Origin: Escherichia virus TH44
DNA length: 64,000 nt
Sequence record: MT446415.1
Strand: one strand, 5' to 3'
This document shows positions 16,303 to 58,486 of this stretch, piece by piece. Under the pieces are notes generated by a model that made no database searches, had not been told where the DNA came from, and worked only from the letters and a program-made list of their open reading frames with translations. Position numbers and translations under genes: made by a program. Positions within the stretch are counted from its first letter, which is position 1, and each line of letters starts with the position of its first letter.

Positions 16303-17981
16303 AAACGTTTAAGCTAAAGAAAGTCATCTACAAAAATATTATGTCGGTAGGCCAGCAACCTATTACAATCCAACTTGACAAGGTCCAAAAAACTCTGGTC
16401 ACCGGTAAGAATGGCGCTGGTAAATCTACGTTCCTTGAAGCCGTTACATTTGCTCTGTTTGGAAAGCCTTTTCGTGATGTTAAGAAAGGGCAGTTGATTA
16501 ACTCAAGTAATAAGAAAGACCTTTTGGTCGAACTGTGGATGGAATATGATGGAAAAGAATACTATATCAAACGCGGGCAAAAACCCAATGTTTTTGAAAT
16601 CACTTGTGGCGGTAAACGTCTTGATGAATCTGCCAGCAGTAAAGACTTCCAAGCGGAATTTGAACAGCTCATCGGAATGTCCTATGCGAGCTTCAAACAA
16701 ATTGTCGTACTCGGCACAGCTGGATATACCCCTTTTATGGGCCTATCCACTCCTGCAAGAAGAAAACTTGTCGAAGACCTTTTAGAGGTTTCTGTACTGG
16801 CCGATATGGATAAGCTGAACAAATCTCTTATCCGCGAAGTCAATAGTCAAATCCAGGTGATGGATGTGCAGCATGACGGGATTGTTCAACAGATTAAAAT
16901 CTATCAGGACAACGAAGACCGTCAAAGAAAATTATCAGGTGATAATCTGTTGCGGCTGCAAACGATGTATGATGAACTTGCCACAGAAGCACGTGGAATC
17001 AAAACGACTATCGAAGAAGCAACGACAAGACTGACCGAGATAATCTTGGGAGAAGACCCTGAGCATGAACTCACGAAGTTAAAGCAGGAATCATTCCTGA
17101 TTAAATCGAAGATTGACGATTACCGAAAGGTGGTTGGTCTGTACGAGAAAGGTGGTTGTTGTCAGACTTGTGCCAGTCAGTTGCATCCAGGAGACCCTAT
17201 TGTCGCCAGGATTGAGTCAAAGATTGAAGAATGTAATGTATCAGCTGATAACCATAAAGCTCGCCAGAATGCTGTTCAGGAGCAATTTGATGAGTATTCT
17301 GCTGCAAGACAAAAGCAACGTACAATAGCTCAAGACATTCAAACTAAGAAACAAACCTTAGTCCAGACTGTCGAAAAAGCTAAAAAGGTTAAAGCATTAA
17401 TCGAGCAAGCTAAGTCAGAATTCATTGACCATGCAGCAGACATTAAAATGCTTCAAGACCAGCTTGATAAAATAGTCAAACAGAAATCTGACCTTGTGAT
17501 GGAAAAATATCAACGTGGCATCTTAACGGATATGTTGAAAGATTCTGGTATTAAGGGCGCGATTATTAAGAAATATATTCCTATCTTTAATAAGCAGATA
17601 AACGCTTACCTTAAAGTTATGGAAGCTGATTATAGTTTTACGTTAGATGAAGAGTTCAACGAAACGATTAAATCTCGTGGACGTGAAGACTTCAGCTATG
17701 CATCATTTAGCCAGGGTGAAAAAGCTCGTATCGATATTGCATTGCTGTTTACATGGCGTGATATTGCTGCGAAAGTATCTGGTGTTAATATTAACACATT
17801 GATTCTGGACGAAGTTTTCGATTCAGCTACTGATGTAGAGGGTGTTAAAGCAATTGCTACCATCCTGAACAAATTGGAAGACACCAACATCTTTATTATC
17901 AGTCACCGAGACCATGACCCGGAAGCATACGGGCAACATCTCCAGATGAAAAAAGTTGGTCGATTCACTGTTATGGAATAA
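16299..17981 (+). CDS. 46: recombination endonuclease subunit gp46 (Rad50/SbcC-like ATPase)
   Basis: 560 aa; Walker A 'GKNGAGKST', central coiled-coil, C-terminal 'LILDEVFD'. Confidence 0.92.
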   Translation: MKTFKLKKVIYKNIMSVGQQPITIQLDKVQKTLVTGKNGAGKSTFLEAVTFALFGKPFRDVKKGQLINSSNKKDLLVELWMEYDGKEYYIKRGQKPNVFEITCGGKRLDESASSKDFQAEFEQLIGMSYASFKQIVVLGTAGYTPFMGLSTPARRKLVEDLLEVSVLADMDKLNKSLIREVNSQIQVMDVQHDGIVQQIKIYQDNEDRQRKLSGDNLLRLQTMYDELATEARGIKTTIEEATTRLTEIILGEDPEHELTKLKQESFLIKSKIDDYRKVVGLYEKGGCCQTCASQLHPGDPIVARIESKIEECNVSADNHKARQNAVQEQFDEYSAARQKQRTIAQDIQTKKQTLVQTVEKAKKVKALIEQAKSEFIDHAADIKMLQDQLDKIVKQKSDLVMEKYQRGILTDMLKDSGIKGAIIKKYIPIFNKQINAYLKVMEADYSFTLDEEFNETIKSRGREDFSYASFSQGEKARIDIALLFTWRDIAAKVSGVNINTLILDEVFDSATDVEGVKAIATILNKLEDTNIFIISHRDHDPEAYGQHLQMKKVGRFTVME

Positions 17982-31789: not shown

Positions 31790-32008
31790 ATAGCGGAAAG
31801 GGGGTGTTATGAAAACATTCAAAGATTTTATCAACGAAGATATGGTTGCTGGTGACGCAGGTGGAAACCCAACTAATATCGCAACAGGTACCACTTCCGG
31901 GGCAGTTGTCAATAAAGGCCCTGAACAAATCCCATCAAAAAAGCGTAAGAACAAAGACGATAAACCTACAGTATAATGGTCCTCCGGGACCATTGAAATG
32001 AGGAAACT

Positions 32009-33037
32009 ATGTCATATATTGATAGAGAATTTGCAGTCAGAGCTTTATCGTATCAACCACGTTATAGAGAAGTCACCGGGAGCACATTTAAAGCAAACTG
32101 TCGTTGCAAGGTTTGTGGGGACTCCCAGAAAGATTCACACAAGGCTCGATTCTGGGCGTATACTAATCCGGCTGATGGCGCGGTTTACGTGAAATGTTTT
32201 AACTGTGACTACTCCACGCATATAAGCAAATACATAAAAGAGTTTGAGCCGGATTTACACCGGGAATATATGGTCGAGAAGTATAAGGAGAATGCCTTTG
32301 GGCGGCAACGTACTGAAGTTACAGAAGCTCCGAAAGAACCAGAAAAAACTCCGGTTATTGAGCAGCTTGCTTTTTGTGAAAGACTCGATACTTTACCAGA
32401 AGCACATCCGATAGTTAAGTATGTAAAAAGTCGATGTATTCCGAGCAATGTTTGGAACCGACTATGGTTTACAAACCAATGGCCTGCATTAGTTAACTCC
32501 GTTAATCCTGGGACGTATAAGAATGAAACGAATGAACCACGCTTGGTTATTCCTATCTTCAACGGCAAAAAAGAAATCGAATCTTTCCAAGGACGAGCTC
32601 TTCGCAAAGATGCACCACAAAAATATATCACAATCAAAGCTCACCCAGAAGCTTCCAAAGTCTATGGCGTAGACAAGATTGATGAGCGTAAACGCGTATG
32701 GGTAATGGAAGGTCCGATTGATAGTTTGTTTATCCCTAACAGCATTGCGATAACCGGTGGAACATTAGCATTAGAAGCTGTTCCTTATCCAGAAACCAGA
32801 GTATGGGTGATGGACAACGAGCCAAGACATCCGGATACGATTAAACGTATGAAGAAGCTCGTTGAAGCTGGCGAAGCTGTTATGTTCTGGGACAATGCAC
32901 CATGGCATACGAAAGACATAAATGAGATGGTTAAATCAGAAGGGGCAACCCCTGAACAAATCGAATCATATATGGCCGATAACGTTGCTCAAGGATTGAT
33001 GGCGAGAATGCGACTTTCGAAGTACGCAAAAGTTTAG
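32009..33037 (+). CDS. 61: DNA primase gp61
   Basis: 342 aa; N-terminal zinc ribbon 'CRCKVCGDS...CFNC'. Confidence 0.92.
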   Translation: MSYIDREFAVRALSYQPRYREVTGSTFKANCRCKVCGDSQKDSHKARFWAYTNPADGAVYVKCFNCDYSTHISKYIKEFEPDLHREYMVEKYKENAFGRQRTEVTEAPKEPEKTPVIEQLAFCERLDTLPEAHPIVKYVKSRCIPSNVWNRLWFTNQWPALVNSVNPGTYKNETNEPRLVIPIFNGKKEIESFQGRALRKDAPQKYITIKAHPEASKVYGVDKIDERKRVWVMEGPIDSLFIPNSIAITGGTLALEAVPYPETRVWVMDNEPRHPDTIKRMKKLVEAGEAVMFWDNAPWHTKDINEMVKSEGATPEQIESYMADNVAQGLMARMRLSKYAKV

Positions 33038-33234
33038 GAAGGGATTCCGGTAAAGTAACCGATGATGGAATGGATATGTTCCATTGTGACCTGAGGTAAG
33101 TGTACCCCTTGTGTTGCAGCGATAGGCACAACCAGTAAGTTCCACAGGAAAACATCAAGAGCTAAAAAGCCCATGATGAGCTTCTTGTCTTTCTTACTGG
33201 TTAATTTCCAAATCTGATAGAATAATGTTCCCAT
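33034..33234 (-). CDS. small membrane protein, paralog A
   Basis: 66 aa; basic N-terminus then TM 'FLWNLLVVPIAATQG'; opposite strand to all neighbours. Confidence 0.45.
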   Translation of the reverse strand: MGTLFYQIWKLTSKKDKKLIMGFLALDVFLWNLLVVPIAATQGVHLPQVTMEHIHSIIGYFTGIPS

Positions 33235-33242
33235 AGTTCCAC

Positions 33243-33440
33243 CTATACAAGGCCGATTAATGCCAGTGAAACATCTACAACTGATTCGAGCGCGACGACT
33301 GGCAATATAATACCATGTGTCAATGCGACAGGGGCAACAATGAAGTTCCAGAGTAGAACTGAACAGAGTACCGAAAGGACCAGAATCGTTCGCTTACGAC
33401 TGCCTTTGATGGCTTGAATTAGACTAGATAGTTTTAGCAT
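33243..33440 (-). CDS. small membrane protein, paralog B
   Basis: 65 aa from ATG with AAAGGAGGA SD; TM 'LLWNFIVAPVALTHG'; 9 nt upstream of paralog A. Confidence 0.45.
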   Translation of the reverse strand: MLKLSSLIQAIKGSRKRTILVLSVLCSVLLWNFIVAPVALTHGIILPVVALESVVDVSLALIGLV

Positions 33441-33524
33441 ACATCCTCCTTTCTTGTATTTATGCTTCAAACCAATACGATATAATTAACATACAAACAA
33501 CATGAATTGATAAGGAAAAATATA

Positions 33525-34043
33525 ATGGCTCATTTTAACGAGTGTTCTCAACTGATTGCTGGTGTTGATAAAGCTCAAGGCGCTTATGATAATGCAATTT
33601 TTGAAGGCACTGACCCACTGCAAGTTATGCTTGATATGCAGAAATCATTGCAGGTTCGTCTGGCTAAAGAAAAACCAGAATATAACGAACATCCTGATAA
33701 CCTGGCGACTGCTGGTGAAGTTGTTACCTGGCTCCGCAACCAGAAAGATTATATTGATGATGAATTCCGTGAACTGATTACTGCATTAGGTGGCATGTCC
33801 AATGGCGAGAAAGCTGCCTCGGCCGTATGGAAACCGTGGAAAGCACAACATGGCGAAATGCAGCAAACCCTGATTAATGATTTATCTCCTGAAGACCAGC
33901 TCGAAATTAAATTCGAAATGATTGATATTCTCCATTTCGTTCTGAACATGTTCCATGGCCTTGGACTGACTGCAGAAGAAATCTTTAAACTGTATTACCT
34001 GAAAAACGCTGAGAACTTTGCTCGTCAAGACCGAGGCTATTAA
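33525..34043 (+). CDS. 56: dCTP/dUTP pyrophosphatase gp56 (MazG-like)
   Basis: 172 aa from ATG; matches T4 gp56 as recalled (MAHFNEC...DPLQVMLDMQ...EIFKLYYLKN.ENFARQDRGY). Confidence 0.88.
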   Translation: MAHFNECSQLIAGVDKAQGAYDNAIFEGTDPLQVMLDMQKSLQVRLAKEKPEYNEHPDNLATAGEVVTWLRNQKDYIDDEFRELITALGGMSNGEKAASAVWKPWKAQHGEMQQTLINDLSPEDQLEIKFEMIDILHFVLNMFHGLGLTAEEIFKLYYLKNAENFARQDRGY

Positions 34044-34086
34044 TACTAATAAATAAGTCATGTAATTAATAAAAATGGAGAATTGC

Positions 34087-34320
34087 ATGGCTTATGTTAA
34101 TATCAAAACAGCTACCCGTGATGTCACCGGTGGTACTGTCGAAGGCAAAGAAATTTCCATTGATTTTACTCTGTATTCAGATGTCCATAAAATTGCGGGC
34201 TCTCACTACCAGACTTTCCCTTCTAAAGATGCAGCATATTCTACCGTTTTTGAAAAGGCTGACAGGGAGGCATGGATTGCAGCAAACGAAGACATTTTTA
34301 AAGTAACCCCGGCGGCATGA
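34087..34320 (+). CDS. soc: small outer capsid protein Soc
   Basis: 77 aa; 'YVNIKT...EGKEIS..F.LYSDVHKI.G.HYQTFPS..AAYSTV...WIAANED' matches T4 Soc as recalled. Confidence 0.85.
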   Translation: MAYVNIKTATRDVTGGTVEGKEISIDFTLYSDVHKIAGSHYQTFPSKDAAYSTVFEKADREAWIAANEDIFKVTPAA

Positions 34321-57534: not shown

Positions 57535-57810
57535 ATGACTAAATTTGAAATCGTTTCTGAAATTGTTACTGTAACTTCAATTTTGATTAAAACCGACCGG
57601 GAAGATATTACGATGAAGCGTGATGTGTTTATCGCGTTTTTGAATGAGTTGGGATTGAGGAATGAGAATGGTAATGAGTTAAACAATGTATCGTTTAACA
57701 AGTTGTTTAAAAGTTTATCTGAAGATGAAATTGAACAAATCATTGAACAATTTAACGAAGGATTCGAAGATATACACCGTTATCTTATGATGTATACCTC
57801 CGGATTCTAA
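57535..57810 (+). CDS. asiA: anti-sigma70 factor AsiA
   Basis: 91 aa; 'REI.TV.SILIK..REDI......FIAFLNE.G...E...L...SF.K....L...........FNEGFE...RYL.MYT' matches T4 AsiA as recalled. Confidence 0.9.
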   Translation: MTKFEIVSEIVTVTSILIKTDREDITMKRDVFIAFLNELGLRNENGNELNNVSFNKLFKSLSEDEIEQIIEQFNEGFEDIHRYLMMYTSGF

Positions 57811-58460
57811 CGTGTACGCCCGAGCGTACGACCTGCTTGTCCACACATAGCAGAAAGCCTATCAAAACTAAGGTTAGGTTTTTGCTTATACCAGTACAGC
57901 GAAACTGTGCCTGCATAAACGTTTTCCAAATTAAAGAATGGGCAGCTAAACATATATGCGAAGCTGCTTTTTTTCTTTGTTGGTAAGAATACAGATTCCG
58001 TACTGGATTCAAAATAATTACCATTAACCCCCGCCAAATATTCCGCCGAAGTTTTATCTATTGGAAACCCACCTAAATTTTTTTCGTCGACTGTATCAGG
58101 CAATATCCCCTCATATCCCACCATATCCACAAAGTAGTTAAGGTTAGTTGGTCTAAAAGAATATATTGCTGTAAAGTCTGCCCCACTTGACGAGTGGACT
58201 ATCTGGATTTGCTCGATAGCTGCAATTTTAAATCTGTTATCCTGGTCTTGCCTTATCATTTCAGTGTATGAGGCATATGAAGCATCCCTGTACGCATCTA
58301 AAAGTGCATCACCTTTATACCAGATTACCGCCATTAAAAATAATAGAACAATAACTAGTACCCGGGAAAAAACAACTTTCCCGGTCGCATTATCTTTAAA
58401 AATTCTATCAAGAAGTCCAAAAAGTAGGTCGGGTATTGATATTCCTACTTTTGGTTCCAT
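57807..58460 (-). CDS. t: holin T
   Basis: 217 aa; 'DLLFG.LDR.FKDNATGKV', 'Y.G.....Y.......Y.E.I', 'CP.FNL.N.YAGT...YWY' match T4 holin as recalled. Confidence 0.9.
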   Translation of the reverse strand: MEPKVGISIPDLLFGLLDRIFKDNATGKVVFSRVLVIVLLFLMAVIWYKGDALLDAYRDASYASYTEMIRQDQDNRFKIAAIEQIQIVHSSSGADFTAIYSFRPTNLNYFVDMVGYEGILPDTVDEKNLGGFPIDKTSAEYLAGVNGNYFESSTESVFLPTKKKSSFAYMFSCPFFNLENVYAGTVSLYWYKQKPNLSFDRLSAMCGQAGRTLGRTR

Positions 58461-58478: not shown

Positions 58479-58486
58479 TATTTATA
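58479..58486 (-). promoter_or_regulatory. late promoter TATAAATA for t
   Basis: exact TATAAATA on minus strand ~20 nt upstream of the t start. Confidence 0.6.

Follow-up and report, generated by a model that had tools for sequence, protein, structure and literature searches.

The DNA analyzed here is a 64,000-nucleotide (nt) stretch of Escherichia virus TH44 (MT446415.1), a T4-like coliphage of the genus Gaprivervirus. The whole stretch is referred to as the window, and all coordinates are window positions unless another record is named. Two small open reading frames (ORFs), orfA and orfB, lie on its minus strand between primase gene 61 and dCTPase gene 56 (Table 1). The stop codon of orfA overlaps that of gene 61, and 8 nt separate the orfB stop codon from the orfA ATG. 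No plus-strand ORF of at least 30 amino acids (aa) was found over the orfA/orfB region. A 2.1-kb query running from gene 61 to gene 56 (32000..34100) was 97% identical to phages UPEC01 and VR20. UPEC01 is the closest annotated relative; 22 of its 24 genes within ±3 kb (the surrounding 8 kb) are on the plus strand, and the counterparts of orfA and orfB are the only ones on the minus strand.

The initial annotation had described an operon of two paralogous minus-strand genes, 9 nt apart, each encoding a protein with a basic N-terminus and one transmembrane (TM) helix. It had placed the operon behind a late-promoter-like motif and a strong Shine–Dalgarno (SD) sequence, in an otherwise plus-strand early region. 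This gene-level description held up. In BLASTP, the two products were 40% identical over 42 aa (E = 2e-10), and both contained the motif LLWN..V.P.A.T.G..LP. The 9 nt correspond to 33243 minus 33234, i.e., to the 8 intervening nt given above. CATAAATA and AGGAGG were both located upstream of orfB, and hydropathy, Lys/Arg counts, and AlphaFold2 models agreed with a basic N-terminus and one TM helix in each protein. Coordinate 33470, the upper end of the operon in that annotation, marks an upstream TTG extension in the orfB frame. We consider it very likely that orfA and orfB are real, late-promoter-driven genes for small membrane proteins of a T-even phage family. At a slightly lower level of confidence, it is likely that they form a two-gene minus-strand late transcription unit of this Gaprivervirus phage.

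Table 1. Genes and sequence elements at the orfA/orfB locus, and the T holin gene used for comparison.
Feature	Position	Strand	Description
Primase gene 61	32009..33037	+	Left flank; convergent with orfA, 4-nt overlap
orfA	33034..33234	-	66 aa, starts MGTLFYQ; Dhakavirus/Marfavirus-type subfamily of PHROG 2024; predicted bitopic membrane protein
GGTGG ribosome-binding site of orfA	33239..33243	-	Overlaps the final base of the orfB stop codon
orfB	33243..33440	-	65 aa, starts MLKLSS, ATG at 33440; T4-type subfamily of PHROG 2024; predicted bitopic membrane protein
SD sequence AGGAGG of orfB	33450..33445	-	4 nt before the ATG
Late-promoter-like motif CATAAATA	33464..33457	-	16 nt before the orfB ATG; 7/8 match to TATAAATA
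MotA-box middle-promoter-like site TGCTTCA-N11-TATAAT	33463..33486	+	39 nt upstream of gene 56; consensus match only; outside the operon
dCTPase gene 56	33525..34043	+	Right flank
T holin gene	57807..58460	-	Pfam PF11031, E = 1e-66; internal positive control
TATAAATA of the T holin gene	58479..58486	-	Perfect; 18 nt before the ATG, followed by an AGGAG site

The PHROG 2024 profile (function unknown) matched the orfA product with an E value of 6e-28 (residues 1–64 of the 65-position profile) and the orfB product with an E value of 6.5e-27 (1–65 of 65). By tblastn, 819 phage records contained orfB-like sequences and 126 contained orfA-like ones. Between genera, the rate of nonsynonymous substitution (dN) was 0.14–0.38 with synonymous sites saturated. 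Between the window and UPEC01, orfA carried seven synonymous and no nonsynonymous changes, and within Gaprivervirus the ratio of nonsynonymous to synonymous rates (dN/dS) of orfB was 0.16–0.62. By these measures, both ORFs are under purifying selection. The combination of saturated synonymous change with conserved amino acids indicated that selection acts on the protein, not on an RNA or on the opposite strand. No Rfam family was found in 32800..33700.

Neither protein had a match in Pfam, NCBIfam, PADLOC, a sequence search of the PDB, or a Foldseek search against the PDB. Foldseek against BFVD returned family members only, one of them labeled 'Holin' by its depositors with no evidence behind the label. 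A word-indexed homolog search returned near-identical Gaprivervirus proteins only. A profile search of 1.84 billion representatives indicated that the PHROG 2024-type family is narrow (13 clusters), and the genomic context of the checked clusters was T4-like in all but one. Cluster P0039 (449 aa, repetitive) was set aside as it looks like a spurious low-complexity match. The exact T4 family protein had no NCBI accession in a collection of 15 billion proteins; near-identical copies of orfA and orfB are already in GenBank as hypothetical proteins. The products of orfA and orfB are ordinary members of a catalogued, uncharacterized family. The initial annotation had allowed that homologs might reveal a known conserved T-even gene, and half of this came true: the gene is conserved, catalogued as PHROG 2024, and 'hypothetical' in many genomes, but it is uncharacterized and absent from the RefSeq annotation of T4.

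The product names given to relatives were inconsistent. Besides 'hypothetical protein', the functional names 'DNA packaging ATPase', 'holin family protein', 'dCTP pyrophosphatase', 'Holin', and 'thymidylate synthase' occur in the records of UPEC01, EAWsc9, CGG4-1, OE5505, and SHP1. Our library searches backed none of the functional names, which are obvious transfer errors.

The position of the family gene was compared across T4-like phages. In each of the 19 T4-like loci examined, with nine named Tevenvirinae genera represented, it was found at the same spot, on the opposite strand and convergent with gene 61. The set contained T4; JS98 and Bp7 (Dhakavirus); Marfa (Marfavirus); Q7622, Kosakonia 305, and PEi20 (Kanagawavirus); PM2 (Mosugukvirus); Merci (Jiaodavirus); CGG4-1 (Gelderlandvirus); and four metagenomic T4-like contigs. 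Its annotated part comprises 10 phages from 9 genera. Every listed phage or contig outside Gaprivervirus has a single family gene between 61 and 56. On this comparison, Tevenvirinae genomes have the family gene as a constant landmark, and no other gene between 61 and 56 is on the opposite strand.

In T4, the family ORF (66 aa, MVQKLMALV...) occupies 17738..17938 (+) of NC_000866, within the 309-bp gap between dam and 61. GATAAATA and AGGAGG are present upstream of it, and its product is 48% identical to that of orfB. RefSeq NC_000866 has no feature in the dam–61 gap; a recent machine-annotated T4 record has a gene there. The T4 gene order is family ORF, dam, gene 56. A tblastn search with T4 dam found no homolog in the whole 64-kb window (best E = 1.5).

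The unannotated T4 ORF, VR7ORF033w, RB32 ORF030w, and AR1 ar1_033 are T-even examples of PHROG 2024. They share with orfA and orfB the size, the W-N..P..A..G..LP..E signature, the position and orientation relative to gene 61, and the late-type motif with an SD sequence. The window differs from the other genera examined in that it has a tandem of two deeply split subfamilies instead of one gene, and the downstream copy is promoterless and decaying in most of the genus.

Only one member was found outside the gene 61 context. P0044 (69 aa, ...MWNLIVVPIAASFGLILPVVALEE..., L015 3001..3210 +) is located in a non-T4-like, siphovirus-like contig. Its neighbors encode a lambda-J-like tail tip protein, endonuclease VII, a minor tail protein, and a serine recombinase, and there is no ATAAATA upstream. 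A lysis cassette was considered for this neighborhood and rejected, as the genes beside P0044, those for endonuclease VII and the minor tail protein among them, include none for an endolysin.

The T4 late-promoter consensus is TATAAATA, at positions −13 to −6. The T holin gene of the window, used as an internal positive control, has a perfect copy, and the geometry of its late motif is like that of orfB (18 and 16 nt before the ATG, respectively). In 14 of 15 loci, the family gene was likewise preceded by a late-promoter motif, NATAAATA, together with an AGGAGG ribosome-binding site. ATAAATA occurred at most 45 nt before the ATG in 14 of 15 T4-like loci, and in 13 of the 15 a copy lay 19–28 nt before the ATG, in spacers that otherwise could hardly be aligned. 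The chance of finding ATAAATA was 0.3–6% per locus. Four loci had a perfect TATAAATA, and the others deviated at the first position alone (C, G, or A). Position −13 is the least conserved, varying position of late promoters in T4 and its relatives (PMC2988020, PMC1524935). The sequence (A)GGAGG was kept in 12 of 13 loci, PM2 having AGGAG only. It is the conservation of the late motif across phages that makes CATAAATA significant. We infer a putative gp55-dependent late transcript that starts near 33451, has an 11-nt leader, and spans both ORFs; no separate promoter motif precedes orfA.

A candidate terminator was examined downstream of the pair. The hairpin AGGGGTTGCCCCT with a weak T tract (32953..32941, minus strand) is located inside gene 61, 80 nt downstream of orfA. 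JS98, Marfa, PM2, Merci, and CGG4-1 lack its palindrome, which encodes primase residues G-A-T-P; the hairpin was rejected as a conserved terminator and is probably fortuitous. As no conserved terminator follows orfA, late transcription probably continues into gene 61 in the antisense direction.

The two genes have different origins. The orfA product was 74–80% identical to the JS98 and Marfa proteins and clustered with those of Dhakavirus and Marfavirus. The orfB product clustered with those of T4 and P0038, an unplaced metagenomic representative, at 46–48% identity. The overall identity between the orfA and orfB products was 26%, and they belong to different deep clades; a recent in-situ tandem duplication was rejected on these grounds. 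The divergence of gp61 (71% identity to JS98, 62% to T4) parallels that of orfA. This parallel divergence, together with the clustering, suggested that orfA is the native positional ortholog abutting gene 61. From these comparisons, orfB is best read as a second, anciently diverged member that lies behind the promoter.

The two genes also differ in how they are maintained. Among nine aligned Gapriverviruses, orfB was intact in all nine, whereas orfA was intact in four (the window, UPEC01, VR25, and TH15) and inactivated in VR20, RZ, VR7, SP18, and EAWsc9. At least five distinct lesions were observed. A nonsense codon at position 2 was found in VR20 and RZ, and a 2-bp deletion in VR20 and EAWsc9. 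RZ also had a 26-bp deletion, VR7 had a 1-bp insertion, and EAWsc9 had lost the start codon and carried an 86-bp deletion. In SP18, a 97-bp deletion removed the SD sequence and the start codon. Deletions of 85–97 bp in orfA occurred in 17 of 33 Gaprivervirus records. The intact orfA copies are still under purifying selection. As orfA decays while orfB is always kept, the two genes appear interchangeable or redundant, and not an obligate holin/antiholin or toxin/antitoxin pair. The initial annotation had compared them with holin/antiholin pairs, and an obligate two-component pair was not supported: the other genera examined have one family gene each, and most Gapriverviruses carry a broken orfA.

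In RZ/DK-13 (L020 469..1218, with orfA broken) and in Bp7 (L013 1708..2463, with the family gene intact), a homing endonuclease gene separates gene 61 from the family gene. These insertions suggested that the junction between gene 61 and the family gene is an insertion hotspot.

Hydropathy analysis indicated a single membrane span at about residues 18–41 in both proteins. There are 4–7 Lys/Arg residues on the N-terminal side of the span and 0–1 on the C-terminal side; by the positive-inside rule, this asymmetry predicts an N-in/C-out topology. AlphaFold2 modeled the same three helices in both proteins, an amphipathic one at 2–11, the transmembrane one at about 15–41, and one at about 51–64, with a loop at 42–50. 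The mean predicted local distance difference test score (pLDDT) was 80 for the orfB product and 67 for the orfA product. Both proteins carry the family signature W-N-x4-P-x-A-x3-G-x2-L-P-x4-E after the basic N-terminus. W31 and P37, both in the TM helix, are invariant across the family, and N32, A39, L46, P47, and E52 are at least 90% conserved. Variation is found at the termini and along the inner half of the TM helix, leaving a conserved surface made up of the outer half of this helix and the juxtamembrane segment (A..G..LP). The near-invariant E52 is in the short C-terminal helix, predicted to face the periplasm.

These features can be assembled into a functional proposal. A gp55-type late promoter, CATAAATA, would give a minus-strand mRNA with a short leader. 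On this mRNA, orfB would be translated from the strong AGGAGG and orfA from the GGTGG site, its ATG coming 8 nt after the orfB stop codon. Both products would enter the inner membrane, with the basic amphipathic N-terminal helix in the cytoplasm and the C-terminal helix in the periplasm. Late in infection, the protein would bind a second membrane protein, either inside the inner membrane or immediately outside it. Partner binding is proposed because conservation peaks in the outer half of the TM helix and in the juxtamembrane loop, with variable termini; generic hole formation would not need such a pattern. The process might be late envelope control, for example through lysis timing or holin regulation, or through membrane protection, a suggestion that we make tentatively. 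With somewhat more reserve, we consider it possible that the family is an overlooked late component of T-even phages. Such a component would bind and tune a membrane partner, for example the TM domain of the T holin or a host membrane protein, with consequences for lysis timing, lysis inhibition, or the integrity of the envelope late in infection. In the Gaprivervirus tandem, nature would then have run a replacement experiment between the two subfamilies.

Few viruses are as thoroughly annotated as T4, yet its reference record has no gene in a 309-bp gap that holds a conserved coding gene. If the family acts in lysis control or envelope protection, a missing player would be added to a classic system. 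Even otherwise, the misleading annotations listed above ('holin', 'DNA packaging ATPase', 'dCTP pyrophosphatase', and 'thymidylate synthase') are corrected, and local transcriptional divergence close to gene 56 is indicated. Three points are worth noting in themselves: the gene is unannotated in reference T4, a conserved late-type promoter lies inside an early block, and the tandem provides natural evidence of redundancy. With orfB kept and orfA decaying, the genus offers a ready-made natural redundancy test.

Several points weigh against the late unit and the role proposed for it. CATAAATA has a mismatch to the consensus at −13 (C), and as a lone 8-mer it is not enriched within the window (1 found, 4.6 expected). 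Its overlap with the MotA-like site (Table 1) could add to the conservation of the motif within Gaprivervirus, but not outside it. In proteins of the orfB type, the C-terminal segment is hydrophobic (mean Kyte–Doolittle value 1.9), so they may adopt a helical-hairpin topology. P0044 hints that the partner need not be specific to T4-like phages. A literature search found no paper on the family ORF and no transcript, protein, or phenotype data for any member, and the functional guess is drawn solely from the conservation pattern and the inferred timing.

The resemblance to lysis proteins was considered as an alternative. The pair could be a holin and its antiholin, or an accessory pinholin-like lysis protein, making lesions in the inner membrane late in infection with one protein inhibiting the other. 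Both are small single-TM proteins behind a late-type promoter, and a mid-membrane Asn with small-residue spacing could aid oligomerization. Some depositors' labels read 'Holin' or 'holin family protein', but no experimental or model evidence was found behind them. No holin family of Pfam or NCBIfam was matched even at E values up to 10. The C-terminus is neither hydrophilic nor highly charged (0–1 basic and 1–2 acidic residues), the charge cluster being N-terminal. In contrast, the canonical small holins of classes I and II (lambda S and phage 21 S68) have a charged C-terminal tail, and orfA and orfB show no sequence or profile similarity to them and adjoin no lysis genes. The neighbors here are primase and dCTPase, and a canonical T holin gene, preceded by a perfect late promoter, is already present in the phage. 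With T (PF11031), the two proteins share the late-type TATAAATA promoter with a short leader, the N-in single TM helix, and the inner-membrane location, but T has a large periplasmic domain and they do not. T4 antiholin RI and other small lysis regulators are alike in size, in the N-terminal membrane segment, in the short periplasmic part, and in possible binding to a membrane partner. RI, however, acts via a globular periplasmic domain, whereas the conserved part of orfA and orfB is the TM helix with about 10 juxtamembrane residues, and no sequence similarity was found in any library. The single gene of other genera and the loss of orfA in most Gapriverviruses indicate that a two-component logic is not required. 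We regard this alternative, and with it the holin comparison made in the initial annotation, as unlikely.

Superinfection exclusion had been suggested as well. A late factor for envelope protection or exclusion would alter an inner-membrane or periplasmic target and block superinfecting DNA, lysis from without, or a membrane-based host defense. The predicted N-in/C-out topology with a conserved periplasm-facing motif is consistent with this, and sp (spackle) and dmd are a few genes away in the same genome block. One member occurs in an unrelated phage contig, as is often seen with accessory genes; against this, the fixed syntenic position across genera is unlike that of a mobile accessory gene. 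The T4 exclusion functions are early genes. T4 Imm and Sp are likewise small envelope proteins, but they are made early from the early strand, whereas orfA and orfB are on the late strand behind a late-type promoter and have no similarity to either. Spackle homologs are separate upstream genes in the relatives, and no PADLOC match was obtained. Such a late protection or exclusion factor, in particular one of the Imm/Sp type, is improbable.

A membrane-associated morphogenesis helper, acting for example in portal/prohead initiation or another late assembly step at the inner membrane, would also fit a late-type promoter, a predicted inner-membrane location, and strict conservation beside core genes in Tevenvirinae. 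No similarity to any structural or assembly family was found, and the family, at 13 clusters in 1.84 billion representatives, has a far narrower distribution than the core assembly genes of T4. We know of no morphogenesis gene identified at this position in the T4 amber-mutant screens for essential genes, which also counts against such a helper. We give this explanation little credence.

Type I toxin-like peptides, as the initial annotation had also proposed, or chance ORFs conserved via the opposite strand (through the 61–56 early-transcript spacer or origin-related DNA), could draw on the early plus-strand transcription from 61 to 56 that, inferred from gene order, would be antisense to the ORFs, and on the adjoining MotA-type promoter with oriA in the T4 neighborhood, but both are very hard to credit given the protein-level selection, the negative Rfam search of 32800..33700, the conserved upstream SD sequence and promoter motif, and, for a toxin, the 65-aa length, the cross-genus conservation, and the fixed position in a virulent phage genome, which are unlike type I toxin loci. 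A dedicated antisense or overlapping sRNA, such as controls a type I toxin, might be missed by sequence alone.

The MotA-like site outside the operon is back-to-back with the CATAAATA late motif, the two overlapping by 2 nt. Seven MotA-like sites were found in the window, compared with 2.4 expected. The 84-bp spacer between orfB and gene 56 would accordingly hold divergent middle and late promoters, if both matches are functional. ATAAATA as a mere by-product of an opposite MotA-like site was considered and rejected, since ATAAATA is retained in T4, Marfa, Q7622, Kosakonia 305, PEi20, and Merci although the other strand has no TGCTT box there. In the T4 record, oriA is located next to gene 56. 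The oriA near T4 gene 56 has been described with a MotA-dependent transcript and outside the regions of transcriptional divergence (PMC3016281). The unannotated opposite-strand gene locally alters this picture of oriA and transcriptional divergence near gene 56.

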